Source: an uncultured Gammaproteobacteria bacterium (GTDB lineage Bacteria > Patescibacteriota > Microgenomatia > UBA10105 > UBA927). From it: 64,000 bases of DNA. The stretch is from NCBI GenBank assembly GCA_964621305.1, contig CAZUOM010000002.1:73733-137732 (forward strand). Direction: 5' to 3'. The position numbers were made by a program, and so were the translations under genes. Below, one piece after another: positions 1 to 60,733 of this stretch (within the stretch, counting starts at the first letter, position 1; the number at the start of each line of letters is the position of its first letter). A model generated the notes under the pieces. The model was given only the letters and a program-made list of their open reading frames with translations. It was not told the origin of the DNA and searched no databases.

Positions 1-997
1 CCTTCTGAATTTTTATGCCCGTATCCGGGAACAGAATAAGAGTTTTGAGACTTTTTCGTTTGGCAAGAAACCTTCCGAGACCGCTGTAGTCCAGCCTCCT
101 GTCAAATCCGCCGGCGATGAGCGTAGCGACGTCATCACCCAGCGCCTCAAGAGCATAGATGGTTGCCTCCGGGATAGTAGCAAGCGAGTCATTGTAAAAC
201 TTAATTCCCTTAAATTCTCCCACAAACTCCAGCCGGTGCGGGAGCGGTTTAAATTGTCCGATCGCCTGTTCTGTTAGTTTGCGACTCACTCCAAAAAATT
301 GGCCAACAGCAGTTGCGGCCGCAATGTTTTTATTGTCGCCATAAAATGCAACCTTGTTTCCCTTGCTGCTATTGGCAATTTTTGCTGACAGTTTGTTTGT
401 GCGGTCGTAAACAACAACGTCTTTTACCGTTTGGAATTTGACGATATTAGCTTTAGCAGCAACATACTGGTCAAAAGAAGAGTAATAATCCAGGTGTTCA
501 GGAAAAACATTGAGGACAACGGCAACATGGGGACTAAACTTAATATCGGCGAGTTGATGGCTAGATAGTTCTATGACGAATACCGTTTTTTGGGTCGCGG
601 CGCCTAGGTGGTCAAGCGCCGGGTTGCCGATGTTGCCGACGAGCCGCACATCGGCAAATTTCTGCTTGAGGATATCGGCAATAAGAGCTGATGTTGTACT
701 TTTTCCCTTGGTGCCAGTGACGCCGACGGTGACTCCCCGACACAGAGAAAAAAAGATGTTTACTGCTGTGGTGACAAATGGAGCGCGAACTTTTTCAGGT
801 GGAATTCCGGGGGTGCGCACGACGGTGTCATACAGCTGGAGATTATCTAAATAATTATCGCCGTCTTTTTTATCAGCGATACTTATAGACAGACTTGAAT
901 AGTTCTTGCGCAAAAACCGTTCCACGCTTTGGTTTTCTCGTCCGTAGCCAAGGAGAATTATTTTGTCCCCCCTAATTTCACTTGAGTAGTTTTTCAT
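1..997 (-). CDS. murD: UDP-N-acetylmuramoylalanine--D-glutamate ligase MurD (C-terminus runs off left window edge)
   Basis: Manual minus-strand translation from ATG (rc of cat 995-997): [25 protein letters not shown]...GVTGTKGKST (Mur-ligase P-loop)...PHRLEFV... Absent from the ORF track because the ORF runs past position 1. Start overlaps the stop of the upstream gene by about 20 nt. Confidence 0.8.
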   Translation of the reverse strand, partial: MKNYSSEIRGDKIILLGYGRENQSVERFLRKNYSSLSISIADKKDGDNYLDNLQLYDTVVRTPGIPPEKVRAPFVTTAVNIFFSLCRGVTVGVTGTKGKSTTSALIADILKQKFADVRLVGNIGNPALDHLGAATQKTVFVIELSSHQLADIKFSPHVAVVLNVFPEHLDYYSSFDQYVAAKANIVKFQTVKDVVVYDRTNKLSAKIANSSKGNKVAFYGDNKNIAAATAVGQFFGVSRKLTEQAIGQFKPLPHRLEFVGEFKGIKFYNDSLATIPEATIYALEALGDDVATLIAGGFDRRLDYSGLGRFLAKRKSLKTLILFPDTGIKIQK

Positions 998-2336
998 ATT
1001 CAGGCGGCAGAAAGTGATTTGTGTTCCAACCAGAAAGGGAATAATTTTCGCCGGCCAACATGGCGACTGCCGCTTGTGCCTCTTCCGGCGCCCCCACGCA
1101 TTCAAATGGCTTCTTGTCCCCTGCTCCGGCCAAATCTAAAAAATGTTGTTGTAGCTCTTTTTTTTCCAAAAAATTGCTGCCGAAAACCGATTTCATTTGA
1201 TAGTTCGAAAGAAATGGGGATAAAATGAGATACACAAAGGCGCACTTGGCGCAGGCTCCGCACCAGTCGCGGCCGCGGAGCTTGTTGCAACTTGCAAAAA
1301 CCGGGTGATATTTTGGCATTTTTGCAAAAATAGAGGCGACTTGGATCTCGGAAAGCGGACGAAGAAAACTGAAGTACTCGGGTTTTCTTAAGGTCTCCCC
1401 CTGCCATGCAGGGAGAGACCTTGTAAAATATTCCCTGAATTTTTTCTCAAACTCATAACTTTTGGAGTACTGGTGGTTGATGATTTTGCCCAGATATTCT
1501 ATGTTTCCCTCTGAAGCACTTGATTCATTTGAGGCAATGACATGTTGAAAACTGTGGAGCTTAGCAACCATTGAGCCGAGGAATGCAAGGTAGGCAGAAA
1601 ACGGCGTATGTCCGTTGAGATATCCTTGATGGTTAAGTTCAAGCAAAGCAGCATCAATTGTTCGCTTAACAATTATCGGATTTTCGTATCCTGCGACCTC
1701 GACAACCCTTATGGCAGCGGGAGTTGGGTTGAGAAGAAGAACGTTTTTTCGAGTCGGCATTTTTTTGAGAAGCTCAATGGTTACCACCGAGTCTTTGCCG
1801 CCACTGGCGAGGATGAGATCACCACGAGAAGCAGGGCTAGTAACACGAGCAGGGCTAGTAACACGAGAAACGCTGGAAATAGTAAGAAAGCCAGAACCGG
1901 TAAAGTCGATCGCGTTTTTGTAGAAAAATTCACCGAGGCCGTTTATGAATAAATCGTGCCACCAATCAATTTGTTCAGGGGTCAAACTCCCCGCTTTGAC
2001 AATCAACTCCGGCGGGCAGGCGGCTTTCCAGTAGCTGATTGCCTCTACCATGCCGAGGTTGAAAACCAACGGGTCGATAAGTGATCGATTGATTTCTCCC
2101 CTAACCGGAATTGTTATTTCCGGAGAAAATCGAATATCTGGTTCGAGAAGAAAATAGAATCGGACAACTAGTTTCTCGTTGGCTTCAGAAATCTCGTAGG
2201 ATTGGTAGACCAACCGAGGATGTTTAGCGCGCAATTTTTCGACATTCATCTTGCGTATTATACCATCGACCTCTATAATAGACGCATGCCGAAGCGAATA
2301 TATCAACCCAAAAAGAAAAAGCGAGCGCAAAAGCAC
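978..2336 (-). CDS. PP-loop (SGGKDS) ATP-pyrophosphatase family protein with C-terminal CxxC; candidate MurL-like UDP-MurNAc-L-Ala-L-Glu epimerase
   Basis: 452-aa [13 protein letters not shown]-loop motif and C-terminal CGACAKC. Lies immediately upstream of murD, is co-oriented with it and overlaps it. Contains an in-frame 18-bp tandem duplication ([13 protein letters not shown]) and a diverged palindromic insertion at 1389-1423. The functional assignment is inference. Confidence 0.55.
1389..1423. repeat. diverged copy of the in-frame palindromic element (AAGGTCTCCCCCTGC catg GCAGGGAGAGACCTT)
   Basis: 15-bp inverted repeat with 1 mismatch and a 4-nt loop, located inside the coding sequence. 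Encodes [11 protein letters not shown] on the minus strand, similar to the peptides encoded by the copies at 14415 and 60308. Confidence 0.6.
1831..1866. repeat. perfect 18-bp tandem duplication (GCAGGGCTAGTAACACGA x2) inside the PP-loop gene
   Basis: Read directly in the sequence. It is in frame and duplicates the hexapeptide (SRVTSP)ARVTSP just upstream of the SGGKDS motif. Confidence 0.9.
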
Positions 2337-2879: not shown

Positions 2880-2881
2880 TT

Positions 2882-3232: not shown

Positions 3233-3234
3233 CA

Positions 3235-3477
3235 ATGAAACAATTTGTTCTTTCATCGATCCGCTTCTACCAGCGCTACCTATCTTTTGATACGGGACTG
3301 CTTAAGTTTTTGTTTCTGACCGATAAAGCCTGCAGGTTTACACCCAGATGCAGTCAGTACACACATGAAGCAATCAGCCGCTATGGTATAATCATGGGAT
3401 TGACCTTGGGAGTGAGACGTATTCTTCGTTGTCATCCCTGGAATAAAGGCGGATACGATCCCGTGCCAAAAGTATGA
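3235..3477 (+). CDS. yidD: membrane protein insertion efficiency factor YidD
   Basis: 80 aa. YQRYLS...[19 protein letters not shown]...[17 protein letters not shown] is a classic YidD sequence. Confidence 0.9.
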
Positions 3478-4734: not shown

Positions 4735-5291
4735 AAATAGGTCTCCTCGGCGGCGTTTTTAATCCTCCGCACGTCGGACATCTCATTATCGCCCAGCAGG
4801 TTTTAGATTTTACAGACATTGAAGAGATTTGGTTTGTCCCCAATTACGGCCAGCTTCCCCCCAAGCCCAACATTGCTTCCTCGGTTGATCGGTTGGCTAT
4901 GACGAAATTTTTGGTGTTGCCGAGGACGCGAATTTCGACGCTTGAAATCGACCATAAACTTGACGGTAACACTATTAATCTTCTCCCTTATTTACCCAAA
5001 GAACATTCATATCAATTTATCATGGGCAGCGACTGGTTATCGTATTTTAGGCAGTGGGGTCAATGGGAAGAGCTTATTGAACAATTGCCCTTTCTTGTGT
5101 TTCCCCGTAGCGGCCACCCCATGGAACCGCTGTATAAAAACATGACACCACTCAAACACGAACTGTTAGTCACCACGAACATTTCCGCGACCAAAATCCG
5201 CGAGCGCATAAGACGAGGGTTGCCCATCGACCAGTTGGTGCCGCGGGAGATTGCCGAATATATAAAGAGGCATGGATTATATTTGACTTGA
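4731..5291 (+). CDS. nadD: nicotinate-nucleotide adenylyltransferase
   Basis: GGVFNPPHVGHL (the (H/T)xGH motif) and overall NadD-like sequence. Confidence 0.85.
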   Translation: MKIGLLGGVFNPPHVGHLIIAQQVLDFTDIEEIWFVPNYGQLPPKPNIASSVDRLAMTKFLVLPRTRISTLEIDHKLDGNTINLLPYLPKEHSYQFIMGSDWLSYFRQWGQWEELIEQLPFLVFPRSGHPMEPLYKNMTPLKHELLVTTNISATKIRERIRRGLPIDQLVPREIAEYIKRHGLYLT

Positions 5292-5316
5292 AACGGCAAT
5301 TTGCTACACTGGCATC

Positions 5317-5649
5317 ATGCATTTGCCCGCTTTTCTTCAGCCTTCTCTTTGGAGTTATGATTTATCAACAATAGATCCAGAGAAAAGCGCTCACTTTATT
5401 ATCTCGCAGGTGTTAAATTACGGCGACGAGCGGCAGCTTAAATGGCTCTTTTCCCATTACGGAAAAGACACTGTACAGGAGGTGTTGCTCCATCCGTCGC
5501 GCGGCATTTGGCACCGGGAAAAATTAAGGAAATGGTTGGGAGTTTTTCGTCTGATGATCGACCCCTTAGTGTTTGAATCGGCGATTGTTGACCTCGCGCC
5601 GCGAATCAAACTCCACGAGGCGTTTTTTGAGCGGAAGGAGACTTCTTAA
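5317..5649 (+). CDS. hypothetical protein; putative partner/antitoxin of the downstream AbiEii-like nucleotidyltransferase
   Basis: 110-aa ORF located 7 nt upstream of the AbiEii-family gene. No motif recognised. Confidence 0.4.
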   Translation: MHLPAFLQPSLWSYDLSTIDPEKSAHFIISQVLNYGDERQLKWLFSHYGKDTVQEVLLHPSRGIWHREKLRKWLGVFRLMIDPLVFESAIVDLAPRIKLHEAFFERKETS

Positions 5650-5655
5650 GCAAGA

Positions 5656-6300
5656 ATGACGTTTCATCCAGACATACTGCACCCGAGACAACAACGCGTG
5701 TTGAGGAAACTGGCTGTTTTTCGCACGTTTGGGTATTACCTCGCGGGTGGGACCGCGCTGGCGTTGCAGCTTGGACACAGAACGTCATTGGATTTTGATT
5801 TTTACAGCAAGGAGAAACTTGAGCGTGAAACGTTCGCGGTTGGCCTCAAGCAATCGTTGTCAACGGTAAAAATATTGCGTCAAACCCATGATGCATTTCA
5901 GGCTGTTACCGAGGGCGTTAACGTGTCCGTGTTTTACTATCCGTATCAACTATTGCATGCGTTGGTTGATTTTCCACCCATTCAGCTTGCTAGCCTTGAG
6001 GATATTGCGGCCATGAAAATCGTGGCCCTCGTGCAAAGGGCTAGACAACGGGATTTTTGGGACGTCTATTATTTGGCAGAGCGCTTGGGAATAGCAAACG
6101 TAATAGCGTCTGCCTACAGGAAATACCCGTGGTATGAAGAGAACAACCAGATCATACTGCGCGCGCTCACCTATTTTGATGATGCGGACACCGATGACGA
6201 GGTCGGGAGAATAACAATTGTTGACAGAAATCTTCGATGGAAAGACGTGAAGGAGAAGATACGGCGTGCGGTGGAAGCATACCGTAAGGAGACAGCGTGA
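5656..6300 (+). CDS. nucleotidyltransferase AbiEii/AbiGii toxin family (DUF1814)
   Basis: YYLAGGTALALQLGHRTSLDFDFYS matches the GGTAL...R.S.D.DF signature of AbiEii. Confidence 0.7.
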   Translation: MTFHPDILHPRQQRVLRKLAVFRTFGYYLAGGTALALQLGHRTSLDFDFYSKEKLERETFAVGLKQSLSTVKILRQTHDAFQAVTEGVNVSVFYYPYQLLHALVDFPPIQLASLEDIAAMKIVALVQRARQRDFWDVYYLAERLGIANVIASAYRKYPWYEENNQIILRALTYFDDADTDDEVGRITIVDRNLRWKDVKEKIRRAVEAYRKETA

Positions 6301-6419
6301 CGGCAGACGAAGATATATACTGAAAAAACTCAGGTTTGCAATTCGTTTTTCCAGTATATACCCATCTAATCAGCTTTTTCGCCCTAACCGGCTGCAAACC
6401 TGAGTAAGATGGGTATAGC

Positions 6420-7184
6420 ATGATGAGCATAAAGCAAACAGCTGGCCGGCTCGTGGAGTTTTTAAAAGTTTCGTTCCAAGACTCTGGATTTACTCGGGCG
6501 GTCATCGCCCTCTCCGGCGGGGTGGACTCAAGTACTAGCTGCGCGCTGACTGCCCAAACAATCGGAAAAGAAAACGTCTATCCCCTTCTTCTTCCCTACG
6601 GGAACCTCAATAAAAAGAGTATGACCGACGCGTGGTTAGTGACAAAAGTCGTCGGAATTCCGAAAAAAAATGTTACAGAAAAAAATATTGCCCCATTGGT
6701 TGACCCGGTTCTTGCAACAGATCCGACGATGGATAACGTTCGTCGCGGCAACATCATGGCCCGCGTGCGGATGATACTCCTTTATGACTGGGCCAAAAAA
6801 CACAATGCGCTCGTAGTTGGGACGGAAAACAAAACCGAGCATCTCTTGGGATACTTTACTCGCTTCGGTGATGAGGCAAGCGACATTGAGCCGCTGCGGA
6901 GCCTTTACAAAACAGAGGTTTATGAACTTGCAAAATTACTGAAACTGCCGAAAGCAATCTTAACCAAGGCGCCAACCGCTGGTTTATGGGAAGGCCAAAC
7001 AGATGAAGGAGAGTTTGGTTTTACTTACAAAGAAGCGGATGAGATTTTGACCCTGTTGGTTGATAAGGGCCTCGCCATTGCCGATGTCATTCTAAAAGGA
7101 TATGATCGAACCACCGTTGAGAAGGTGGCGACCCGCATGAAAGCTAACAACTTTAAGCACAATCTTCCCCTCGTTCCCCTATGA
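6420..7184 (+). CDS. nadE: NH3-dependent NAD+ synthetase
   Basis: ALSGGVDSS PP-loop motif, 254 aa, NadE-like throughout. Confidence 0.85.
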   Translation: MMSIKQTAGRLVEFLKVSFQDSGFTRAVIALSGGVDSSTSCALTAQTIGKENVYPLLLPYGNLNKKSMTDAWLVTKVVGIPKKNVTEKNIAPLVDPVLATDPTMDNVRRGNIMARVRMILLYDWAKKHNALVVGTENKTEHLLGYFTRFGDEASDIEPLRSLYKTEVYELAKLLKLPKAILTKAPTAGLWEGQTDEGEFGFTYKEADEILTLLVDKGLAIADVILKGYDRTTVEKVATRMKANNFKHNLPLVPL

Positions 7185-8431
7185 GGTGGCACCAAATATT
7201 TTTTTTCCTCCTTCTTGTTTTTTTACCTACGCAATTGGGTTACCACTTTTGGCCTGACTGGGCGATGGTGTTGGGAAGGAGAGTCGACTACTTATCTCCT
7301 ACCGTTTTCTTGACGGACCTTCTCATTTTGTTAACAGTTGGCAGCTGGTTTTTTACAGAAATATCAAATATCAAAAATCAAAAATCAAAAATACAAATTA
7401 AAAATCAAAAACTTAAGTTACTTTTCTTAGCTGTTGTGTTTGTATTAATCAATATTTTTGTTTCTGAAGAGAGACCGGTTGCTATTTATAAATGGTTGAA
7501 GGTTGCGGAATTTGTTGCGCTGGGATGGTATGTAGTAAAAACAAAGCCACCTTTATCGTTTATCGCTTATCCCATGTCGCTTGGCCTTTTGTATTCATCT
7601 GTTCTGGCCATTGCACAATTTTTGCTCCAGCATTCTATCGGCGGCCCACTGTGGTGGCTTGGCGAAAGAATCTTCAATCTCGATACACCGGGTATTGCAC
7701 GTTTTGGCTGGTTTGGTCGGGAAATTCTCAGACCCTACGCAATGTTTCCACACCCGAACGTATTGGGAGGCTACCTCGCGGCAATTCTGCCGCTCATAAT
7801 TATCCAATTAACCAATAATCCAATTCTCAAATTATCCAATATAAAAAAGACGTTTTACCTTACAACTTTGGCGTTGGGGATGGTTGCGCTTGGGTTGACG
7901 TTTAGCAGGAGCGCAATTACTGTCGGAATATTTGCCATTGGACTAACGCTGTGGCAAACATTCAGAAAAAAAAGATATTTGGTTTTGTTTTTTGCCTTTG
8001 TATTGCTTATTGCTTATTGCTTATTGATTATTGCTCCCAATGGCGAGTCGTTTGTCGTTCGGCAGCAGCTTAACGATGCGGCGATAAAAATTTGGCAGCA
8101 ATCCCCCATTATTGGTGTTGGACTTGGAAACTTTCTTGTTGAGTTGCCAAAAGCACTAACCTCCCGATCCGTGTATTTTTTGCAGCCGGCGCACAACATT
8201 TACATTTTGGTTTTAGCAGAAACAGGTGTCGTTGGATTAATATTGCTTCTTTATTTACTTTGGAGAGTCTTTCGAAAAAGACCATTTGGCATTTATCATT
8301 TGTCATTTGGCATTTTGTTAATTCTGGGTCTCGTCGACCACTATCTCCTCACACTCCAACAAGGGCAATTACTGTTGACGCTTTTTGTTTCTTTGAATCT
8401 CTTCGGCTCACACAATACAATACGCTCATGA
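7181..8431 (+). CDS. O-antigen ligase-like (Wzy_C/WaaL family) polytopic membrane protein
   Basis: 416 aa, about 10 TM segments, large loop ...GLGNFLVELPKAL...PAHNIYILVLAETG typical of O-antigen ligase. Contains three to four short tandem-repeat tracts. Confidence 0.65.
   Translation: MRWHQIFFFLLLVFLPTQLGYHFWPDWAMVLGRRVDYLSPTVFLTDLLILLTVGSWFFTEISNIKNQKSKIQIKNQKLKLLFLAVVFVLINIFVSEERPVAIYKWLKVAEFVALGWYVVKTKPPLSFIAYPMSLGLLYSSVLAIAQFLLQHSIGGPLWWLGERIFNLDTPGIARFGWFGREILRPYAMFPHPNVLGGYLAAILPLIIIQLTNNPILKLSNIKKTFYLTTLALGMVALGLTFSRSAITVGIFAIGLTLWQTFRKKRYLVLFFAFVLLIAYCLLIIAPNGESFVVRQQLNDAAIKIWQQSPIIGVGLGNFLVELPKALTSRSVYFLQPAHNIYILVLAETGVVGLILLLYLLWRVFRKRPFGIYHLSFGILLILGLVDHYLLTLQQGQLLLTLFVSLNLFGSHNTIRS
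7360..7408. repeat. heptanucleotide tandem repeat tract (AATATCA x2, AAAATCA x2-3, degenerate units) inside the ligase gene
   Basis: Read directly. Encodes SNIKNQKSKIQIKNQK. Confidence 0.85.
7802..7841. repeat. five imperfect octamer units (ATCCAATT/AACCAATA/ATCCAATT/CTCAAATT/ATCCAATA)
   Basis: Read directly. Encodes IQLTNNPILKLSNI. Confidence 0.75.
8001..8035. repeat. five tandem heptamers TATTG(C/A)T
   Basis: Read directly: tattgct tattgct tattgct tattgat tattgct. Encodes LLIAYCLLIIA. Confidence 0.9.
8284..8318. repeat. five tandem heptamers CATTTNN
   Basis: Read directly: catttgg catttat catttgt catttgg cattttg. The tract straddles the 3' part of the ligase gene. Confidence 0.85.
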
Positions 8432-9642
8432 TTTCCGTATTCACAAACACCGCTTGGCAGGTGTTGGGAAAAGCAGCAACCGCAGGAACTACCTTTCTTT
8501 TGACCATCCTTATTGCCAGCGCATTTGGCGTGGAGGGCTACGGAGACTTTACCAAAATTACCACCTACGTTGCGCTCTTTTTTCTGCTCGCTGATTTTGG
8601 CCTCAATGCTGTTTATCTGCAGAAATCGACGGACTGGAGAGCCCTGTTGGGATTGCGGATTGTGGCAAGCACACTCCTCACATTTTTTGCAATCGCAACG
8701 CTTTCGTTTTTGCCGCAAGGCACGATCAACGGCTTCACGGGTCTTGTGCGCCTGGGCATTGTCCTCTACTCCCCCGCCATCATCTTTCAGGCGCTCCTTA
8801 TGACAGCCAACGCATATTTTCAAAAAAATTTACGCTACCGGTTTTCAACCGTTGCTGTAGCTAGTGGATCGATTGTTTCGCTTGTCCTCATTTGGATTGC
8901 CTCCGGTATGTTTACACCTGCAGCCGGAACGCTTGCCAGCGTTGTTGCATTGCTCGTTGGGTCGGTCGTGACTGCGGTGATTGCCCTTGCTTTCATTCAA
9001 CGACTCAAACAAAACACCTCTCCCTTGTTCAGTCGTTTTATGGCGCGTGAACTTCTGGTCGGCGCACTTCCCCTTGGGGCAACATTGATTTTTAACGTCG
9101 TGTATTTTCGGATCGACAGCCTGATTATGACCGTATCCAGAACAACTGCGGAAGTTGGCATTTACGGACTTGCATACAAATTTTTTGAACTGCCTGTTGT
9201 TTTGCCCACATTTTTTATGAACACCGTCTATCCGTTGATGCTGACAAGTCAAAAATTAATTTCCGTGGTGAAGCGGTCAGCAGTTGTCTTGCTTATTGCT
9301 TCTCTTTTATCGCTTGTCACACTCTGGCTGGCTGCCCCCCTCCTTTCTCTTATCAAATCCGATTTTGGGGCAAGCGTGCCGGCGCTTCGCGTGCTTTCGC
9401 TGGGGCTGCCTTTTTTCTTTCTTACAAGCCTTACGATGTGGACGATAATTGCACTAAAAAAACAAACAGCACTGGTTTTTATTTACGGGGTGTCGATGAT
9501 CGGCACGATTCTTGCTGACCTTCTGTTTATCCCCACGTTGGGGATGATCGCGGCGGCGTGGATTACGGTTATTTCAGAGGCGGCAGTTTTGTTAATGTCT
9601 GGATTTTTTCTTGTTCGATATTTAAAAAAAATCCAAATATGA
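8428..9642 (+). CDS. Wzx-like polysaccharide flippase (MOP superfamily)
   Basis: Start at ATG 8428 (ATGA overlap with the ligase stop). 12-TM protein, MISVFTNTAWQVLGKAATAGTTFLLTILIASAFGVEGYGDF, typical Wzx N-terminus. Confidence 0.7.
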   Translation: MISVFTNTAWQVLGKAATAGTTFLLTILIASAFGVEGYGDFTKITTYVALFFLLADFGLNAVYLQKSTDWRALLGLRIVASTLLTFFAIATLSFLPQGTINGFTGLVRLGIVLYSPAIIFQALLMTANAYFQKNLRYRFSTVAVASGSIVSLVLIWIASGMFTPAAGTLASVVALLVGSVVTAVIALAFIQRLKQNTSPLFSRFMARELLVGALPLGATLIFNVVYFRIDSLIMTVSRTTAEVGIYGLAYKFFELPVVLPTFFMNTVYPLMLTSQKLISVVKRSAVVLLIASLLSLVTLWLAAPLLSLIKSDFGASVPALRVLSLGLPFFFLTSLTMWTIIALKKQTALVFIYGVSMIGTILADLLFIPTLGMIAAAWITVISEAAVLLMSGFFLVRYLKKIQI

Positions 9643-10100
9643 AATTTATCGTGCATACTGATGGGGGAGCCAGGGGCAATCCTGGCCCAGCGGCAATAGG
9701 GGTCCTTATTGAAATGACCAATGAAAAGAAAAAAATTGTAGAAATTAGCAAAAAAATAGAGGAGGCGACGAATAATGTGGCGGAATACACCGCAGTGCTA
9801 GAGGCACTGCGGAATATCAAATATCAAATATCAAATATCAAATATGAAGAAAGAAAACAAATGCAGATTGCTTTTTTTCTCGATTCGGTGCTGGTTGTTA
9901 ATCAACTCAACGGAAAATTTAAAGTTAAAGATCCGCAATTGAGAGAGCTACTACTGGCGGTCAGACTCCTTGAACAAGAGGTTGGGGGACTGATTAGATA
10001 TGCAGCGGTTCCTCGTGAGCAAAATCAGTGGGCGGACTTTTTGGTAAATAAGGCCCTGGATGGGGATAAACTCATGTCTCTTTCTTCTTTTGCGAAATAA
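9639..10100 (+). CDS. rnhA: ribonuclease H
   Basis: MKFIVHTDGGARGNPGPAAIGVLI...NNVAEYTAVLEAL matches the RNase H fold motifs. ATGA overlap with the flippase gene. Carries an internal low-complexity insertion made of 5 heptamer repeats. Confidence 0.8.
   Translation: MKFIVHTDGGARGNPGPAAIGVLIEMTNEKKKIVEISKKIEEATNNVAEYTAVLEALRNIKYQISNIKYEERKQMQIAFFLDSVLVVNQLNGKFKVKDPQLRELLLAVRLLEQEVGGLIRYAAVPREQNQWADFLVNKALDGDKLMSLSSFAK
9813..9847. repeat. five tandem heptamers AATATCA (last unit AATATGA) inside rnhA
   Basis: Read directly. Encodes NIKYQISNIKYE. The first two units are identical to the start of the 7360 tract. Confidence 0.9.
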
Positions 10101-10162
10101 AAGGGAATCTTGACGCTGTTGTTTTCGTATCAGCCTTTTGCCATAATGGGCCAAGACTTCTT

Positions 10163-12679
10163 ATGGCTCCTGTAAGCAACCGTATCACTGAGGATGCTTT
10201 CGCTGCATCCACTTTAGCCCGTTTAGACGTGCAGGAAGTGGAGCTCGGAGTACCGATTCGTGAATTTTTAACGACGTCCGGATGTGTCGTTTTCATTAAC
10301 AAAGATCCGCCGACAACCGCAGACTATCACATCATTTATGGTGACGAATCATTTGTGAAACATATACTTTCTGTGCTTGAGACGTATCACAATAAGACCC
10401 TTATTATACTCTCTGGAGAAACCGCGCAAACTGCTGAAAATATTTCTCACAAAAAGATCGGAAAAGTTGCTTTGGTCGGAACACACTTTCTTTCTTCACG
10501 TCAAACAAGAGGCATCTTTGCATTTTTTTTTACAAGTCGGAAATTCGTAGAGATTTTTGAAGAAACACAAAGAGACACAACGAGCAAAGAACTAGAAAAA
10601 GAAAGACCTTCGAAAAATCGCCTCCTACGATCAATTGAGGACGATGATAGGCTCCGTATCGCTGACGTGATATCTCGTACGTATTGGGATCAAAGCCACG
10701 AGCGTTTAGCATTGACTCGACGAAAAGGAAAAAAGAGTGTTCAGTCTACAATCATTAAGATTTTTATGAGGTTAAAGATCAACGCTTTGTACCTTGCCGC
10801 GTTTACTATTGTATTACCGTTTATTTGGTACTTCACGTCGGTTTCTGTTGCTGCATGGTTTCTCTATTATGGATCACATCAGTTAATTAACGGACATGCA
10901 GATGCGGCAGCGGCTTCAGCCGTTGCTGGACATCAATGGACAAATAGAGCGGCATGGACATTGTCATATATTGCTCTTCCATTTCAATTGGTAGGAACTG
11001 GTGGGTGGTTTCGAAATCAAGAACGAGTCGTATCTCTTCTTCGTAATCTAGTTGATGCGGGACAAAGCGCAGCAATTCTGGTTGCCTCAGGGAAAGATAT
11101 GATTGCATCGATACTAGAGCCATTCGGCACATCGACGGCGTATGGTTCTTCGGCTGTTGCCAGCGATAGACTTAAACAAGAGCTTCTCGTTCTTGGCGGT
11201 ACACTTGGTCTTGCACAGGGAGAGCTCGACATCATACTCCGAAACGAAATATTTCCTTTCAATATAAGTGCCATAAAAAAACGTGGAGAAGCGGGGCGAT
11301 ATTCACTTTCGCACCTGCGACTGATTATGGGCGAACTGAAAGGATTTGTTTCTCTTTATCCAGCAGTTGCTGGATTTAAAGATAAGAAAGTCTACCTCGT
11401 TCTTCTTCAAAATAGTATGGAATTGCGTCCAACCGGCGGCTTTATAGGCTCTGTTGCTTCAGTCACGTTTTCAGAGGGAACGCTTTTGGATTTCGTTATA
11501 CAGGATGTCTATGATTTGGATGGACAATTGAAGGGCCATGTAGACCCGCCGGAACAGATTCGGCAGTTATTGCAACAAGAGCGCTGGTACTTGCGGGATT
11601 CTAACTGGGATCCAGACTTTGCGGTTTCCGCTCATCGTGCAGCATGGTTTTATGAGAAGGAAGCCGGGCATCAAGTTGATGGGGTCATCGCCATAAATGT
11701 ACCATTTCTTATAGATATTCTTAAGGCAGTTGGATCCGTCGAGGTCTCAGATTACAACGATCGGGTGACCGCAGAGAATTTTTTTGGTAAATCGCTCTAC
11801 TATACGCAAGCAAATTTTTTCCCTGGTTCCACCCAAAAAAAGGATTTTCTTGGGGCACTGGCGAATGCACTATTGACAAAAGTTACAAGCAACAAAAGCG
11901 TCCAGCCGCCTATTCTGTCTGCAATTGCCAAGGCGCTTAGGTCGGGCAATCTTTTACTATGGTTTACCGATCCTCAAATCCAACAAGTAGTAGAACAGCT
12001 TGGATGGGCAGGGAGAGTTCCAGCCGGTAACCAATGCAAAGGTCAGGAATTGAGCAGCTGCCTTGCTGATCGAGCCATGTTTGTTGAGGCTAATCTTTCT
12101 GTGAATAAAGTCAATTACTTTCTCAAACGAAACATTCGTCACCGGGTGGTTTTGGCAGAAGATGGTTCAGTCACAGAGACCGTGAGCGTACTATACACCA
12201 ATAACTCTCCGTCTGATGACCGAACAGGCGGCGGAACGTATCGCGCCTACGGTAGGCTGATTGTTCCAGCAGACGCTGTCGTTGAATCTGTGACACTGGA
12301 TGGAGTTGCATTGTCCGAGCCAAGCAACAAAGTGAACGCAACATTCGAGCCGCCGTATTTGGTCAACGAAAACACCTACGAGAGCAGTATCTTTGGCGTT
12401 GCGTTGGATGTGCCACGTGGACAACAACGGCAGTTGGTTCTTTCGTATCGCCGCCGAGCCCTCGTGGTATTTGTTGCTAACCGAGGCGTCTACGATTTGT
12501 ATCTGCAGAAGCAGCCGGGACTCATTAATACCGATCTGGTTGTCGATGTTTCCTTCCCCATTTTTTGGCAGCCAGAAACAACAGGTGGCAAGCTTTCGTT
12601 TCTTGCCAATCAAGCCAGGCTCGAGTACAATATGCCTTTATTACAAAACGAGCAATTTAAAATTGTTTTTACAAAATGA
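10163..12679 (+). CDS. large membrane-anchored extracytoplasmic protein (possibly DUF4012 family)
   Basis: 838 aa. One TM near residue 200 (LYLAAFTIVLPFIWYFTSVSVAAWFLYY). LLQNSMELRPTGGFIGS motif. The family assignment is from memory only. Confidence 0.5.
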   Translation: MAPVSNRITEDAFAASTLARLDVQEVELGVPIREFLTTSGCVVFINKDPPTTADYHIIYGDESFVKHILSVLETYHNKTLIILSGETAQTAENISHKKIGKVALVGTHFLSSRQTRGIFAFFFTSRKFVEIFEETQRDTTSKELEKERPSKNRLLRSIEDDDRLRIADVISRTYWDQSHERLALTRRKGKKSVQSTIIKIFMRLKINALYLAAFTIVLPFIWYFTSVSVAAWFLYYGSHQLINGHADAAAASAVAGHQWTNRAAWTLSYIALPFQLVGTGGWFRNQERVVSLLRNLVDAGQSAAILVASGKDMIASILEPFGTSTAYGSSAVASDRLKQELLVLGGTLGLAQGELDIILRNEIFPFNISAIKKRGEAGRYSLSHLRLIMGELKGFVSLYPAVAGFKDKKVYLVLLQNSMELRPTGGFIGSVASVTFSEGTLLDFVIQDVYDLDGQLKGHVDPPEQIRQLLQQERWYLRDSNWDPDFAVSAHRAAWFYEKEAGHQVDGVIAINVPFLIDILKAVGSVEVSDYNDRVTAENFFGKSLYYTQANFFPGSTQKKDFLGALANALLTKVTSNKSVQPPILSAIAKALRSGNLLLWFTDPQIQQVVEQLGWAGRVPAGNQCKGQELSSCLADRAMFVEANLSVNKVNYFLKRNIRHRVVLAEDGSVTETVSVLYTNNSPSDDRTGGGTYRAYGRLIVPADAVVESVTLDGVALSEPSNKVNATFEPPYLVNENTYESSIFGVALDVPRGQQRQLVLSYRRRALVVFVANRGVYDLYLQKQPGLINTDLVVDVSFPIFWQPETTGGKLSFLANQARLEYNMPLLQNEQFKIVFTK

Positions 12680-13389
12680 AAAAGCATTCATTATCCGCTC
12701 AGAAACGAGATTTGGTCGGTCGCAAGGTCAAACAATTAAGAAAGCAAGGAATACTGCCGGCTTCCCTGTATGGCAAAAAAGTCAAAAGCGCTTCGCTTTC
12801 GGTAAAACTTGATGACTTTGAAAAAGTTTACAAAGAAGCAGGGGAGTCGGGACTGGTGGATCTAAAAGTCGATAGCGAGGTTAAACCCGTCCTAATTCAC
12901 AACGTCCAAAAAGATCCGGTAAAAGGATTTCCACTTCATGTTGAGTTTTTCCAGGTAGATCTTAAAGCAAAAGTCCAGACACGGGTGCCGATTGAGCTTG
13001 TGGGTGAATCTGCCGCTGTAGCGCAAAAACAGGGAGTGCTCCTTACTATTCTTGACGAGATCGAAGTTGAGGCTCTGCCGACTGATTTACCGGAAAAAAT
13101 TACGGTCGATGTTTCAGGCTTGGCCGCAGTTGATCAGGAAATAAAAGTTAGTGACCTCAATGTGTCGTCGGGAGTTGCTGTTCTAACTGACGCCGGTCAA
13201 ACTCTTGTGAAAGTTGGAGCGTTGGTTACCAAACAAGCAGAAGCTGAGGTCGCGGCCGAAGAAGCAGCCAAGGCCGCAGCAGCCGCTGAGGCTGCCACTG
13301 AGGCGAAAGCCGAAGTGCCGGCAGCCCAAGAGAAACCGGCCGAGCCAGCAGCCAAAGAAGAAAAAACCCCGGAGGAGAAGAAAGAATAA
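12676..13389 (+). CDS. rplY: 50S ribosomal protein L25/general stress protein Ctc with Ala/Glu/Lys-rich C-terminal tail
   Basis: MKKHSLSAQKRDLVGRKVKQLRKQGILPASLYGK is an L25/Ctc N-terminus. The low-complexity tail is encoded at 13240-13389. Confidence 0.8.
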   Translation: MKKHSLSAQKRDLVGRKVKQLRKQGILPASLYGKKVKSASLSVKLDDFEKVYKEAGESGLVDLKVDSEVKPVLIHNVQKDPVKGFPLHVEFFQVDLKAKVQTRVPIELVGESAAVAQKQGVLLTILDEIEVEALPTDLPEKITVDVSGLAAVDQEIKVSDLNVSSGVAVLTDAGQTLVKVGALVTKQAEAEVAAEEAAKAAAAAEAATEAKAEVPAAQEKPAEPAAKEEKTPEEKKE

Positions 13390-13896
13390 CTATTTTTTTA
13401 TTAGCTCCTCAAATTTTTTTGCAACTTTGTTATTTGAATCTAAAGCAATGGCCTGATTTAGCAGCCTTTTTGTTTCCTCGGTTTTTCCTAATTGGTAGGC
13501 GAGAGAGGCCAAAGTTATATACGCGTCGCGGTAGTCGGGGTGGGCGAGTGCAACAGATTGCCAGAATTGGTAGGCTTGCGCAAGCGTCTCTGAGGCGTTT
13601 TTCCATTGGTTTAGTAAATCCTCGGTGCTGGCTCCAAGGATAGCCTCTTTTTTGGCTGTATTTCGCAGTCCCTCCTGCCAAAGCTCCTGCGCAAGTAGCC
13701 TGTGTCTCGTTGTCGAAAAAGGTTCTTGCAGCGCAGCCTCAAGTTTGCTCCAGTAGCTTGGCGCGCGATAGGTTCGCGCAAAGACATTGACCGCAAACAG
13801 AGCCGTCAGGCCGGCCCACAAAATCGAAGAAATTGACGATGCAATCAAACTTGCGGTAAATTTTCGGCTAAAGCGCGGGAATTCTAGCTTTAACAT
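13390..13896 (-). CDS. tetratricopeptide-repeat protein with N-terminal TM anchor
   Basis: 168 aa, N-terminal hydrophobic helix, TPR-like A/L/Y periodicity (AYQFWQSVALAHPDYRDAYITLASLAYQLGK). Confidence 0.6.
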   Translation of the reverse strand: MLKLEFPRFSRKFTASLIASSISSILWAGLTALFAVNVFARTYRAPSYWSKLEAALQEPFSTTRHRLLAQELWQEGLRNTAKKEAILGASTEDLLNQWKNASETLAQAYQFWQSVALAHPDYRDAYITLASLAYQLGKTEETKRLLNQAIALDSNNKVAKKFEELIKK

Positions 13897-13918
13897 AGGA
13901 TTATGCTATAGTGTAGGC

Positions 13919-14650
13919 ATGAACAGGAAGAAAACGCAACAGGTTATTGAGCTTCTTAAGAAAGAATATCCCAACGCAAAGATAGTCCTCAAGTTTAGTA
14001 ACCCGTGGGAACTTTTGGTAGCGGTGGTTTTATCAGCCCAATGCACAGACGCGGTAGTCAATAGGGTGACAGAGAAGCTTTTTGCCAAATACAAAACCCT
14101 TGATGGCTATCTAAAGGCAGACATAAAAACCTTCGAACAGGAGATAAGATCCACAGGCTTTTACCACAACAAAGCGAAAAATATTTTGGCCGCGGCAAAA
14201 CTCGTCAAGGAAAAATTTGGTGGCGAGGTGCCAAGCACGATGAGCGAGCTTTTGACGCTTCCCGGTGTGGCGAGAAAAACAGCAAACATCATTTTGGGCA
14301 ACGCGTTTAACATTATAGAGGGCATCGCTGTCGATACCCACGTGTCGCGCCTGAGCCAGCGCTTGCGGCTGGTTAATGTAGACACAATCGGCGGGAAGAA
14401 AGTTATTTTTTTCAAAAGGGGTCCCCTTGCAGCTTTGCAAGGGGACCCCTTGAAGAGAGAGATCGTAGATTATAAAAAGGACGCCGACCCGGTCAAAATA
14501 GAACGCGAGCTGATGGCGGTCGTGCCCAAACCAGATTGGTTCAAGCTCACGTATTTGTTGATCGATCACGGCCGGGCAATCTGCAAAGCCCAAAATCCCA
14601 ACTGCAGCGCCTGTGTCCTTAATAAACTTTGTCCGGCGTCACGGCTTTAA
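13919..14650 (+). CDS. nth: endonuclease III (Nth) carrying an in-frame ~36-aa insertion encoded by a palindromic element
   Basis: Start chosen at MNRKK (13919). LSAQCTD, LPGVARKTANIIL, VDTHVSRLSQRL and a C-terminal CKAQNPNCSACVLNKLCP 4Fe-4S loop. The insertion lies between the HhH-GPD core and the FeS loop and contains a 16-bp perfect inverted repeat. Confidence 0.85.
   Translation: MNRKKTQQVIELLKKEYPNAKIVLKFSNPWELLVAVVLSAQCTDAVVNRVTEKLFAKYKTLDGYLKADIKTFEQEIRSTGFYHNKAKNILAAAKLVKEKFGGEVPSTMSELLTLPGVARKTANIILGNAFNIIEGIAVDTHVSRLSQRLRLVNVDTIGGKKVIFFKRGPLAALQGDPLKREIVDYKKDADPVKIERELMAVVPKPDWFKLTYLLIDHGRAICKAQNPNCSACVLNKLCPASRL
14415..14454. repeat. palindromic in-frame element AAGGGGTCCCCTTGCA-gctt-TGCAAGGGGACCCCTT
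   Basis: Perfect 16-bp inverted repeat with a 4-nt loop inside the nth coding sequence. A near-identical copy lies in trpS at 60308-60350. Confidence 0.9.
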
Positions 14651-14653
14651 TCT

Positions 14654-14926
14654 ATGAAGATCGTTTATACTAAACACGCAGCAAAGAAGTTTAAAGATCT
14701 TAAGCGTCTGGGCTTATTTGTTTCTCGCTTACTTGTTAAGAGTATAATCGAGCATCCCCTTCACCTGGACGAAATGACGGGCTTTCCCAAAAAAATTGCC
14801 AATGGAGTACTCGATCAAACCCATGTTCTTCGCGTTGTGTACAGGCAGGAAGGTGATATAATTATGGTGATTACATTTTACCAACAAAGAAAGGCAGGTA
14901 CACGTCATGAGAATTCGTTACGATAA
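14654..14926 (+). CDS. DUF4258-like toxin-type small protein
   Basis: 90 aa, immediately followed by and overlapping a DUF2283-type gene. The family assignment is from memory. Confidence 0.45.
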   Translation: MKIVYTKHAAKKFKDLKRLGLFVSRLLVKSIIEHPLHLDEMTGFPKKIANGVLDQTHVLRVVYRQEGDIIMVITFYQQRKAGTRHENSLR

Positions 14927-20570: not shown

Positions 20571-21652
20571 AAACGTGGCAAAAACTTAAACAAGACCCAA
20601 AACTCTGGGAGCGGTATTTTGTGAGGGAGAAGGTAATAAAGGCTATCCGCAGGTTTTTTTTTGACCGGGGGTTTCACGAAGTGGAAACGCCCTACCTGAC
20701 AGGGAGCCTGCCTCCCGAATCATACCTTGATGTTTTTGAGACCATTCTCCTTGACCGGCATCGCCGGCCGAAACAAGCGTTTTTACCCACATCTCCGGAG
20801 CCGTTTCTCAAAAAACTCCTCGTTGCCGGCATTGGGAATTGCTTTGCTCTTCCCAAAAGCTTTCGCAACACCGAAGACATGAGCCGGACGCACAATCCGG
20901 AGTTTACGATCCTCGAGTGGTATCGGGTTAACAGTGATTACACCGATATCATGGCCGACTGCGAGGAGCTTCTTGTTTTTATAAATGCCTATTTACAAAG
21001 GAGTAGCTCAGGTCACGGCTCCGTGAAATTAACCGACCTTTTCTACCAAAAAAAACGAGTTGATCTCTCCGGCCCGTGGGAGCGGCTCTCTATGGTTGAG
21101 GCATTCCACCGGTACGCAAAGATAGATCTTACCCGCGCTTTAACCCGCCACACTCTGGCCCCGATTGCCAAGAAGAAAGGATATACTGTGGACGAAGCCT
21201 ATGGATGGGAGGAGCTATTTGACCAGATATTTCTCAATGAGGTTGTGCCGCACCTGGGGCGGGGGAGGCCGACCATCGTCTATGATTATCCGCTCGCACT
21301 TGCCGCGCTTTCGCAGAAGAAAAAATCCGATCCACGGTTTGCAGAACGGTTCGAGTTTTACATTGAAGGGCTTGAGCTTGGAGACGCATACACAGAGCTC
21401 ACTGACTGGAAAGAGCAGCTAGAGCGGTTTCGACTGGAAGAGAGGGAGCGTAAACGTCTGGGAAAGGTGGAGCACCCCATAGACATGGACTTTATTGAAG
21501 CGCTCAAGGTAGGATTGCCTCCCTCCAGCGGGATTGCGGTAGGTGTGGATCGCCTCGTGATGCTATTTGCGGATACAAACGACATTGCTAACACGCTGTT
21601 TTTCCCAGGGAAAGAATTATTTCTTAACCGCCCTGGCAAGCTCTCCAAGTAA
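20567..21652 (+). CDS. epmA: EF-P lysine aminoacylase EpmA/PoxA-like (class II LysRS catalytic-domain paralog)
   Basis: Class II motifs FHEVETPYLT, FRNTEDMSRTHNPEFTILEWY and GIAVGVDRLVMLF. No anticodon-binding domain is present. Confidence 0.7.
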   Translation: MKTWQKLKQDPKLWERYFVREKVIKAIRRFFFDRGFHEVETPYLTGSLPPESYLDVFETILLDRHRRPKQAFLPTSPEPFLKKLLVAGIGNCFALPKSFRNTEDMSRTHNPEFTILEWYRVNSDYTDIMADCEELLVFINAYLQRSSSGHGSVKLTDLFYQKKRVDLSGPWERLSMVEAFHRYAKIDLTRALTRHTLAPIAKKKGYTVDEAYGWEELFDQIFLNEVVPHLGRGRPTIVYDYPLALAALSQKKKSDPRFAERFEFYIEGLELGDAYTELTDWKEQLERFRLEERERKRLGKVEHPIDMDFIEALKVGLPPSSGIAVGVDRLVMLFADTNDIANTLFFPGKELFLNRPGKLSK

Positions 21653-51413: not shown

Positions 51414-51418
51414 ATTTT

Positions 51419-59284: not shown

Positions 59285-60733
59285 ATGAAACGATTTATTT
59301 CTGGTATTACGCCGAGCGGGGATGGGAGTTTACATATTGGCAATTATTTGGGTGCCGTGCGGCAGTTTATTGATCTTGCTCGATCAAATGAGACGTATCT
59401 CATGGTTGCAGACCTTCACGGCTTGACGACGATCCAGGATAAACAGCAGTTGATTCATAACATCGAAACATTGGTCCTCAATGAATTGGCACTCCTGCGC
59501 GGGTTTATGACAGCGAAAGAATTTAGCAAAATTGTCTTTTTTCGCCAATCTGATGTACTCATGCACGCCGAGTGCCAGTCGATTCTCAACAACGTCACCC
59601 CTCTGGGGTTACTTAAGCGCGCGCACGCGTACAAAGATAAGCTTGGTAAGGATACAGTGAAGGACGACATCAACGTTGGCCTCTTTTCCTATCCGATGCT
59701 CATGGCTGCAGACATACTCCTCTACCAGCCGGATCTAGTGCCGGTTGGTAAAGATCAAAAGCAACACATAGAAATAACGCGTGATATCGCCGATCGGTTC
59801 AACAAAATTTTTCGAGCAAAAGTCTTTAAACTTCCTGAGCCGTATATTCCAGAGGAAGTTGCTGTGGTATTGGGGACAGACGGGAAGCGCAAGATGAGTA
59901 AATCCCTCGGAAACATTATTGCTATGTTTGAGCCGGAAGAGGTCATCAAAAAACAGGTGATGGAAACCTACACGGATCCGGCCCGAGCTCACGCCACCGA
60001 TCCAGGGCACGTAGAAGGGAATATGGTGTTTGCATATCTGGATTTTTTCGGAGAACCGCGTAGCGTTGCGAAACTAAAAGAAAAATACCGTCGCGGAACC
60101 GTCGCGGACGTAGAGGTGAAAGAGTATTTGTTTAAAACTTTAATTGAGTATTTTGCTCCAGCCCGCAAAGCATATGAGCAGTTAAAGGCTAATCCAGTAA
60201 TGGTCAAAAAAATTCTTGCCGACGGAGCCCAAAAGGCCAGTGCGGTTGCCAGTCAAACCATGATGGCGGTGCGAGAGGCGATAGGGTTGACGAACAAGTA
60301 CTCAATAAGGGGTCCCCTTGCGGGGCCATCTTTGCAAGGGGACCCCTTGCAAAAAACGATTAGTATCGATGAATTTGCGCGGGTGGAGGAACGGGTGGGG
60401 AAGGTAATCGAGGCGACGAATGTCGAAGGGAGCGAGAAGCTCATTCGATTGGTGGTTGATTTTGGCCCCGCCTTCGCTGAAGCTACGGCGGGCGAGGGAA
60501 AGCGGATTATTTTCACCGGCGTGCGGGGATTTGGTTATACGCCGGAAGATTTTCTCAACAAACAATTTTTGTTTGTCACCAATCTTGCGCCGAGAAAGAT
60601 GCCCTCCTACGTTGAAACTCCGGCGGGTAAAATGGGGGAAGAATCACAAGGCATGATTTTAGCCGTAGACGGACCTGGTAAACCAATCTTTGTTTCCGCC
60701 GAAGAAATGCCATTGGGAGCAAAAGTCAGATAA
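59285..60733 (+). CDS. trpS: tryptophan--tRNA ligase fused to a C-terminal EMAP/Trbp111-like tRNA-binding domain, with in-frame palindromic insertion in the linker
   Basis: Start MKRFISGITPSG..HIGNYLGAV (HIGH-type) and KMSKS. C-terminal ~110 aa VGKVIEATNVEGSEKLIRLVVDFG... is the OB tRNA-binding domain. Confidence 0.85.
   Translation: MKRFISGITPSGDGSLHIGNYLGAVRQFIDLARSNETYLMVADLHGLTTIQDKQQLIHNIETLVLNELALLRGFMTAKEFSKIVFFRQSDVLMHAECQSILNNVTPLGLLKRAHAYKDKLGKDTVKDDINVGLFSYPMLMAADILLYQPDLVPVGKDQKQHIEITRDIADRFNKIFRAKVFKLPEPYIPEEVAVVLGTDGKRKMSKSLGNIIAMFEPEEVIKKQVMETYTDPARAHATDPGHVEGNMVFAYLDFFGEPRSVAKLKEKYRRGTVADVEVKEYLFKTLIEYFAPARKAYEQLKANPVMVKKILADGAQKASAVASQTMMAVREAIGLTNKYSIRGPLAGPSLQGDPLQKTISIDEFARVEERVGKVIEATNVEGSEKLIRLVVDFGPAFAEATAGEGKRIIFTGVRGFGYTPEDFLNKQFLFVTNLAPRKMPSYVETPAGKMGEESQGMILAVDGPGKPIFVSAEEMPLGAKVR
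60308..60350. repeat. palindromic in-frame element AAGGGGTCCCCTTGC-ggggccatcttt-GCAAGGGGACCCCTT inside trpS
   Basis: Arms identical to the nth copy. Encodes IRGPLAGPSLQGDPLQ. Confidence 0.9.

Follow-up and report, generated by a model that had tools for sequence, protein, structure and literature searches.

Short in-frame hairpin repeats within protein-coding genes of a Candidatus Gottesmanbacteria-type genome

The DNA analysed here, referred to as the window, is a stretch of 64,000 nucleotides from an uncultured bacterium (assembly GCA_964621305.1, contig CAZUOM010000002.1, positions 73,733 to 137,732), and it contains three protein-coding genes that each host one copy of a short hairpin-forming repeat. 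For two of the products, Nth and TrpRS, the closest proteins carry the name Candidatus Gottesmanbacteria (Patescibacteria/Candidate Phyla Radiation, CPR). The nth gene (13919..14650, + strand) encodes an endonuclease III of 243 aa, which matches Pfam HhH-GPD, HHH and EndIII_4Fe-2S and is 100% identical to protein P0001. Copy 1 lies within it at 14416..14451 (+) and is a perfect 16-bp inverted repeat with a 4-nt loop, AAGGGGTCCCCTTGCA-gctt-TGCAAGGGGACCCCTT, with arms at 14416-14431 and 14436-14451 and the loop at 14432-14435, and it codes for Nth residues R167-L178 (RGPLAALQGDPL). The trpS gene (59285..60733, +) is fused to a C-terminal tRNA-binding domain, and copy 2 sits in its interdomain linker at 60307..60348 (+), with perfect 15-bp arms at 60307-60321 and 60334-60348 around a 12-nt loop (60322-60333), coding for TrpRS residues 342-355 (RGPLAGPSLQGDPL). 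Arm for arm, nth and trpS agree at 15/15 positions, and the peptides of the two hairpin regions read KRGPLAALQGDPL and IRGPLAGPSLQGDPL, respectively. Copy 3 is a diverged version at 1390..1422 (-), within a gene at 978..2249 (-) that carries an SGGKDS motif and has an uncertain start codon; here the 15-bp arms (1390-1404 and 1408-1422) enclose a loop of three nucleotides (1405-1407), and the minus strand codes for an 11-residue peptide. The sole mismatch of copy 3, C/A on the + strand, is a G-U pair in the mRNA sense, and 11/15 arm positions are shared with copies 1 and 2, including those of the invariant AAG...C.TGC / GCA.G...CTT.

A first-pass annotation of the window had described the perfect nth repeat, the recurrence of its arms in trpS and a diverged copy in a 'PP-loop gene', each in frame in a different gene. 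All three hairpins are present as claimed, within long open reading frames (ORFs) that stay open, and they are the only three GC-rich hairpins in the window. The identity of the third host had to be revised, however, as this gene matches NCBIfam NF041275 (E = 4e-73, under the curated cut-off), and its predicted product is a homologue of the UDP-MurNAc-L-Ala-L-Glu epimerase; it is therefore called MurL-like below.

GC-rich perfect hairpins of at least 15 bp number two in the window and zero in 20 dinucleotide shuffles, and hairpins with at least 13 pairs and no more than two mismatches are exactly the three copies, with 0-1 in the shuffles. Likewise, a search with the arm pattern allowing up to three mismatches returned 9 matches against 1.6 expected, and a covariance model of the family scored the three copies at 37-57 bits (43 bits for copy 3) and everything else in the window at 13 bits or below. 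Folded as RNA, the hairpins have predicted stabilities of -29 to -38 kcal/mol, against -15 to -21 kcal/mol for DNA; folding z-scores are -5.4 to -8.1. The arms are 62-73% GC in a window of 46% GC that is ~90% coding, and in all six frames they are free of stop codons. Part of the window is matched at 100% identity by two other assemblies, namely L092 (GCA_005239695.1, NCBI) over 14.7 kb, with its positions 1-14716 corresponding to window 49285-64000, and L093 (the Logan assembly of SRR6943130) over 5.0 kb; the matching stretches both span the trpS copy and neither reaches the nth or MurL-like copies. We give next to no credence to chance similarity or to an assembly or chimera artefact, since shuffled sequence yields zero such hairpins, the trpS copy is covered by these two further assemblies and the orthologous copies described below come from independent projects, and we found no point in favour of such an origin.

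Two other features of the window involve inverted repeats. An imperfect one, GCCCTTGCAAGCCGTCTACG / CGTGGATGATTTGCAAGGGC followed by TTTT, lies at 58385-58429 within the ORF-poor region 58110-58530; it has CCCTTGCAA in common with the element, scores only 13 bits with the family model, and probably represents a terminator or belongs to a non-coding RNA. Odd-length perfect palindromes (half-length 6 or more) occur in the window at about twice their frequency in shuffles (35 vs 15; for example TTTTGGGACCCAAAA at 30973-30987, AAAAGGCCCTTTT at 34903-34915 and TTTCCCAGGGAAA at 21601-21613), and even-length palindromes show no enrichment (18 vs 16).

The hairpin is also found outside the window. L092 runs 6.7 kb past the window end, and ~4.9 kb into this extension the same genome has a fourth copy (L092:19642-19681), AAGGGGTGGCCTTGCA-aagagagc-TGCAAGGGCACCCCTT (loop AAGAGAGC), in frame in a gene for a GT4 glycosyltransferase and coding for MQGVALQRELQGHPLRK. 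This copy has 15/16 pairs intact, with one compensated change relative to the nth copy. A scan for the exact arms, which covered one genome per species, gave two more matches in low-GC genomes, both in frame and both with arms identical to those of nth and trpS: one in recJ of another Patescibacteria metagenome-assembled genome (MAG; L001, MQGVPLHTQGDPLP) and one in a membrane-protein gene of a third MAG (L002, ARGPLAGSARGPL). Actinomycetota matches from the scan (L003 and L004) were set aside as unrelated, having other, longer stems in high-GC DNA. A scan of viral contigs gave no match, and no Rfam family matches the hairpins. The concern, raised with the original description, that the window copies might stand alone is thus answered by three further loci.

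Across these loci and the orthologues described below, the element is 33-42 bp long and consists of two complementary arms of 15-17 nt, of the form AAG-N8-C-N-TGC, around a loop of 3-14 nt. With the covariance model all copies score 37-57 bits, the motifs AAG...C.TGC and GCA.G...CTT are invariant over six host genes, and the commonest arm variant, AAGGGGWCCCCTT, is a palindrome in its own right. The host genes encode a DNA glycosylase, a tRNA synthetase, an exonuclease, a cell-wall epimerase, a glycosyltransferase and a membrane protein, and functions this mixed suggest no gene-specific logic. Every copy found lies within a protein-coding gene of a Gottesmanbacteria-type genome, and no intergenic copy was seen in the DNA examined. 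The 12 hairpin sequences, from six independent gene sites, are all stop-free multiples of three that keep the ORF open, which makes read-through of the inserts the most likely outcome; the predicted translation GPLAALQGDPLK is an example of an insert-bearing peptide.

We also compared the insert positions with the architecture of the host proteins. In Nth, the first-pass annotation had pointed to a segment of ~36 aa, and residues 153-188 (14375..14482, +) are indeed extra relative to solved endonuclease III, lying opposite three residues in the alignment with PDB 1P59. Most of this segment, however, is a clade-wide extension (VNVDTIGGKKVIFF ... EIVDYKKDADP), and only its centre of ~10-12 residues, R167-L178, derives from the palindrome. 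The extra segment divides the TIGR01083 match, which is above the cut-off, into two stretches. In an AlphaFold2 model of Nth (mean predicted local distance difference test score, pLDDT, 83), the core is above 90 and residues 161-190 are at 57-64. In TrpRS, Pfam tRNA-synt_1b covers residues 3-290 and tRNA_bind 370-477, and with NCBIfam the TIGR00233 match stops at 335 and a metG_C_term-like domain begins at 353, with the insert at 342-355. Likewise, the RecJ insert occupies residues 317-328, flanked by DHH (75-208) and DHHA1 (334-423). The inserts therefore fall in interdomain linkers (TrpRS, RecJ) or in a low-confidence loop (Nth).

Analysis of orthologues showed that the inserts are patchily distributed at these sites. 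The clade extension VDLxKIGGKK...DYKKDADP is conserved in all 120 Gottesmanbacteria-type Nth orthologues, and its centre is hypervariable, ranging from 0 to ~40 residues. Nth proteins of other phyla, used as controls rather than as relatives and taken from among the metagenome-scan matches listed (42-55% identity), read RLGLTKNxDP at this point, without the extension. The insert is absent from 44 of the 120 orthologues (e.g. FKKGTKIIVDY), and an empty nth site was read as DNA in L100. The remaining orthologues carry R-x-x-L-type peptides in recognisable groups, which we counted by regular-expression classes of our own definition: RxxLA..Q...L (16, window included), RPGL..RPGL (19), ASRPGLE (10), PPLK.RGGE (4), single RPGL units (13) and other (14). 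In TrpRS, the linker has a median of 16 aa among orthologues (YSFFEYxKPxxGxT); inserts of the R[GR]PL[AE] type are present in 8/120, and several others have different palindrome-like peptides. The 11-12 residues are missing from the closest MurL orthologues (P0241 and P0242), P0243 carries another palindrome-like peptide there (IRPGLLASKGRAL), and in the one GT4 orthologue compared (L102/L103) 9 residues are absent at the site. Absence of the insert from relatives, a point put forward for testing in the first-pass annotation, is thus seen for many Nth, most TrpRS, the closest MurL and the GT4 orthologue, and where the DNA of orthologues is available the site is either empty or bears a hairpin, so that the same peptide is not encountered without the palindrome.

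Distance trees of Nth and TrpRS place the insert types in local clusters, interspersed with insert-free sequences, a pattern that fits old insertions with many losses and possibly re-insertions, although the trees are too weak to decide. Near relatives in Nth can differ by precisely one arm plus loop, as in P0004 (KRPGLGGHQRPGLEQV) vs P0025 (KRPGLEQV) and likewise P0061 vs P0090 (TRPGLPGLRPGLKDSKELL vs TRPGLKDSKELL). Arms that are near-palindromic are also near-direct repeats, and replication slippage may thus be the obvious route for the gain and loss of arms. As a separate observation, longer in-frame inserts occupy the same sites in MurL P0269 and P0281 and in TrpRS P0233 (SRAGGNPVLNLAKTGSPIGVGDD, SREGGNPSSLKDWTPDQVRGD and SRGGGNQVLNKIGSPIRPGMTTD); judged from the protein sequences, they look as if a second palindromic repeat family, with larger members, had been translated.

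To follow the stems themselves, DNA was obtained for seven more insert-bearing Nth/TrpRS orthologues, in addition to the empty nth site. Different hairpins occupy exactly the same codon position, and the nth inserts all come after TTC/TTT A[AC]A codons. Compared with the window, nth in L095 (AAGGCGTCCCCTTGCA / 4 / TGCAAGGGGACGCCTT, the middle figure being the loop in nt) has one G:C to C:G swap and a perfect stem, and nth in L085 (AAGAGATGGTCTTGC / 6 / GCAAGACCATCTCTT) differs at 5 pairs, all of them compensated in a perfect 15-bp stem. L091 has AAGGCCAGGCCTT / 8 / AAGGCCTGGCCTT at this position, L089 a longer imperfect hairpin around CCTCCCCTTA / TAAGGGGAGG, and L087 a single unit only, AAGGGGCCCCCTGCAA. 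At the centre pair of trpS, where the window has T:A, L102 has G:C in a perfect stem and L094 has a G/A mismatch, a half-step intermediate; trpS of L097 has the same C:G variant as nth of L095, together with one bulge. In 11 aligned copies, 98.8% of cells are paired (two unpaired of 165), a percentage that is partly circular because hairpin shape or peptide similarity was how the copies were recognised; this circularity does not affect the compensated differences between orthologues. Changes on both sides affect 8/15 stem pairs, none of 500 shuffles reached any of the measures, and sliding the partner column left 39-68% paired.

The property that persists is therefore the inverted, hairpin-forming relation of the arms. 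Two other architectures were considered and ruled out. If the arms were two separate dimer-binding sites, each should stay palindromic, yet the L095 and L085 arms have lost self-palindromy and still pair perfectly with one another; and a tandem direct duplication of one unit would give identical arm centres, whereas the central bases of the doublet are complementary in the canonical copies (T/A) and in L102 (G/C), with the G/A mismatch of L094 between them. A test of self-complementarity by back-translation of proteins was abandoned, as shuffled proteins gave equally long 'potential stems'; Leu, Arg and Ser have six codons each, which leaves this test powerless, and all hairpin claims made here rest on DNA.

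These data also bear on whether the peptide (RGPL...QGDPL) is what is selected, with the DNA palindrome as a by-product. The halves of the peptide do recur in Nth, TrpRS, RecJ and the membrane protein, but they do so in differing frames and arrangements (RGPL..QGDPL, QGVPL..QGDPL and RGPL..RGPL), peptides at the same site diverge widely among orthologues while the DNA pairs in every copy for which it is available, and compensated changes alter residues on both sides (G to R with P to A; T:A to G:C giving D to A). With the region also predicted to be disordered or of low confidence, we consider selection of a protein-level motif very improbable. A lox/FRT-like site for a site-specific recombinase, in which inverted arms of 13-16 bp surround a short asymmetric spacer, appears just as improbable. 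Perfect inverted arms of 15-16 bp around a 4-12-bp spacer would suit such a site, and a XerD-like tyrosine recombinase is encoded at 45349-46215 (-), but Xer-type recombinases are common housekeeping genes. Moreover, core sites need a fixed spacer and the spacer here varies from 3 to 14 nt, the arms covary instead of conserving a binding motif, and essential genes would be inverted or lost if copies 46 kb apart recombined.

A further possibility is that nothing has moved, and that each hairpin was made in place by replication template switching in loops that tolerate indels. In published work, template switching both makes and mends perfect stems through single events, including one-step compensatory changes (PMC8794818, PMC5453318), and several features here resemble its products, namely the perfect stems, the many different hairpins at one site, the quasi-palindrome intermediate of L094 and a possible loop inversion, the L102 trpS loop being similar to the reverse complement of the window loop (p ~0.014). 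In nth, the empty allele reads AAA GGT GGT and the filled allele AAA AGG GGT, so that the left arm may partly pre-exist, and the flanking TTCAA / TTGAA lengthens the stem. However, template switching is a mutational mechanism and does not constitute a family of elements, and alone it leaves the same arms in unrelated genes and genomes unexplained. The 15-nt arms are identical in nth, trpS, recJ and the membrane-protein gene, whose empty sites share no similarity (in peptide alignments, empty trpS linkers bear no resemblance to the arm), and AAG...C.TGC / GCA.G...CTT is invariant over six host genes. We therefore regard a purely local origin as improbable, and the identical arms at unrelated loci as pointing to mobility.

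The degree of arm conservation was assessed against the surrounding genes. The window genes are 66-72% identical in nucleotide sequence to their orthologues, with third-position identity at codons for the same amino acid of 0.44-0.50, indicating that synonymous sites are saturated. None-the-less, the arms match those of the window at 28-29/30 positions in L094, L102 and L095, although only at 20/30 in L085, and because the orthologues compared were chosen for the likeness of their peptides to that of the window, this excess is biased upwards. Arm variants also recur between loci: C:G at stem position 5 occurs in nth of L095 and trpS of L097, and a G or C centre in trpS of L102 and nth of L087, all of them loci of other genomes. 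Identical, old-looking arms together with recurring variants could mean that copies evolve in concert inside a genome, which would imply a partner that recognises their sequence. Strict concerted evolution is at odds with the four copies of this genome, which are not uniform.

Such a partner would make the hairpin a structured element maintained by the host or by a replicator, with both pairing and sequence under selection and with copies co-evolving in each genome. In the form of RNA, or of extruded or single-stranded DNA, the hairpin might be bound by a RAYT-like (REP-associated tyrosine transposase, where REP denotes repetitive extragenic palindromic) HUH enzyme, a nuclease or a recombinase, or it might act in cis in ribosome pausing at domain boundaries or in mRNA processing. 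This would accommodate the arm identity despite synonymous saturation, the occurrence of identical arms in four genes of three genomes, the compensatory changes with so few unpaired cells, the same arm variants at nth and trpS elsewhere, the G-U pair formed in mRNA by the MurL-like mismatch and the placement of inserts at domain boundaries. On the other hand, the element is dispensable, being absent from 44/120 Nth, most TrpRS, the closest MurL and the GT4 orthologue; several unrelated hairpins occupy one site in different lineages; copies in the same genome differ (one compensated pair and one mismatch in GT4, 4/15 positions in MurL); a loop range of 3-14 nt is awkward for a binding site of fixed geometry; no partner gene was identified among the loci read; and the conservation estimate carries the bias described above. 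We consider this explanation unlikely, though it has to be taken seriously, and would place marginally below it the broader proposal that the hairpins are a self-perpetuating or host-recruited intragenic system, either a population of replicators like REPINs (REP doublets forming hairpins) or a cis-element with its partner, whose arms co-evolve between loci.

The explanation that we favour, with moderate confidence, is a low-copy hairpin repeat similar to Rickettsia palindromic elements (RPEs) and REPINs, selfish or near-neutral, which is tolerated only in permissive loops, inherited vertically and kept self-complementary. New copies would arise rarely, by copying of the arm sequence to a new site. 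The copying might be done by an HUH/RAYT-like enzyme that recognises hairpins, or it might result from ectopic template switching while DNA is replicated or repaired. The gene would remain intact only where the length of the insert is a multiple of three and the place is permissive, such as a linker or the tip of a probable surface extension, and the ribosome would then translate the insert into 10-15 additional residues with a high share of G, P, L, R and Q. After insertion, a copy would be passed on vertically over long periods, its arms drifting yet staying complementary through compensatory changes, and its loop being unconstrained. Selection might act on the folded form to keep the arms complementary, or intrastrand template switching (quasi-palindrome correction) might do so, and arms and loops may be gained and lost to leave single 'RPGL/RGPL' units.

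Several observations weigh against this explanation. The loops of the four identical-arm copies are unrelated (GCTT, GGGGCCATCTTT, GTAT and CGAGCCT), which is a poor fit to copy-and-paste of a complete element, and the flanks of the copies have no target-site duplications, direct repeats or common sequence. Copy number is low: this genome has 4 copies in 70.7 kb of DNA read, and ~120 kb of flanks of related loci held no copy besides that in the gene originally selected. No transposase, RAYT or IS200-like gene is apparent in the ORF translations of the window or at the syntenic loci, a result that covers Pfam/NCBIfam searches of ~15 window ORFs, with many ORFs unscanned, and precomputed Pfam matches of the syntenic loci, and that concerns ~71 kb of the genome. 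In addition, the conservation of the arms beyond neutral expectation suggests a constraint on DNA or RNA, and the variants shared between nth and trpS would not be predicted from independent drift.

We compared the element with known systems that it resembles, beginning with RPEs, to which the first-pass annotation had likened it. RPEs (Ogata et al. 2000, 2002, as summarised in PMC10969869) are ~150 bp long and form ten families, each with a conserved encoded peptide, with 44 copies in R. conorii. The likeness in behaviour stands, in that here too a palindromic repeat is present at several loci of one genome (three in the window and one past it), lies in frame in unrelated conserved genes with the ORF open and apparently translated, and occupies sites that appear permissive, with a patchy distribution among orthologues. 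The R. conorii genome is ~1.27 Mb, and by our own arithmetic the density is similar in the two, at ~1 per 29 kb there and ~1 per 18-21 kb here. Membership does not stand: the elements here are 33-42 bp, near-perfect hairpins, and their peptide is not conserved and varies with frame and lineage; different hairpins recur at one codon position and the arms evolve by compensation; and the host belongs to Candidatus Gottesmanbacteria (CPR) and is not an alphaproteobacterium. This comparison was made with RPEs by description rather than by alignment to their consensus.

In architecture, REP and REPIN sequences associated with RAYT (TnpA_REP) are closer (PMC3116915, PMC3337134, PMC3733652), sharing the size class of 20-40 bp, the GC-rich palindromes and, for REPINs, two inverted units that flank a spacer and fold into a single long hairpin, as well as long vertical persistence at orthologous positions with structure kept as sequence drifts; the palindromic nature of the commonest arm, AAGGGGWCCCCTT, adds to this likeness. 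However, REPs are extragenic by definition and all copies here are intragenic and in frame, copy number appears low in the DNA read when set against the tens to hundreds of REP copies per genome, and no RAYT gene was seen among the window ORFs read or scanned or at the related loci. The REP end tag GTAG/CGTC (PMC3733652) is likewise absent from the inspected flanks of 10 copies. Intragenic bacterial MITEs (transposable elements of the miniature inverted-repeat type), such as ERIC, QMITE1 and the Anabaena MITEs (PMC10969869), are also small non-autonomous repeats able to fuse in frame with host ORFs. They differ in having terminal inverted repeats with an internal region, target-site duplications and usually a parent insertion sequence (IS), whereas here the whole element is the inverted repeat, there are no duplications and no IS element was seen in the window.

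Outside bacteria, the GC clusters of yeast mitochondria include in-frame copies in var1. These mobile clusters (PMC4478555) are hairpins of 30-50 nt, GC-rich relative to their genome and found in coding genes without destroying them, but they are organellar and eukaryotic. The 'byp' elements of Magnusiomyces, reportedly described by Lang et al. in 2014, are of arbitrary length and skipped by the ribosome, whereas the hairpins here are of triplet length and stop-free in 12/12 cases, for which read-through is simpler. Overall, RPEs are closest in behaviour, and REP/REPIN doublets and mitochondrial GC clusters closest in architecture, and membership of the RPE, REP/REPIN, MITE and bypass-element classes fails in each case on the features given. 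In full-text searches of the literature we found no such elements described in CPR, Patescibacteria or Gottesmanbacteria.

Protein-coding palindromes have so far been treated as a peculiarity of Rickettsia, and the element described here is a much smaller, hairpin-perfect counterpart in a free-standing CPR lineage. Its occurrence in a window that is ~90% coding suggests that genome compaction may lead more generally to selfish DNA hiding in permissive protein loops. Some lineage-specific insertions in these Gottesmanbacteria proteins could be accounted for in this way, and the inserts provide a natural map of insertion-tolerant sites in the Nth, TrpRS, RecJ, MurL and GT4 enzymes. It is also a clean system in which to follow compensatory stem evolution inside an ORF, where each change to the stem is also an amino-acid change. 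For annotation, such inserts divide hidden Markov model matches, as with TIGR01083 on Nth, and could pass for assembly errors. Should the hairpins instead prove to be a replicator or to have a dedicated partner, they would be the first case of a hairpin replicator living obligatorily inside genes and being translated.

Other features of the window were noted alongside the hairpins. A group I catalytic intron (Rfam, 62 bits) lies at 55582-55828 (+), with a GIY-YIG ORF downstream at 56094-56363, assigned from a precomputed Pfam match on L092, and a tRNA at 55424-55495 lies on the strand opposite to the intron. A 616-aa ORF without a Pfam match (36878-38728) follows directly on an 801-aa ORF (33674-36079), and an AdoCbl-II (cobalamin) riboswitch is located upstream of it at 36704-36775 (+). 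A homologue of TraG/VirD4-like coupling proteins is encoded at 39100-41523 (+), and several toxin-antitoxin pairs (PIN, Fic and MazE-like) are dispersed over the window.

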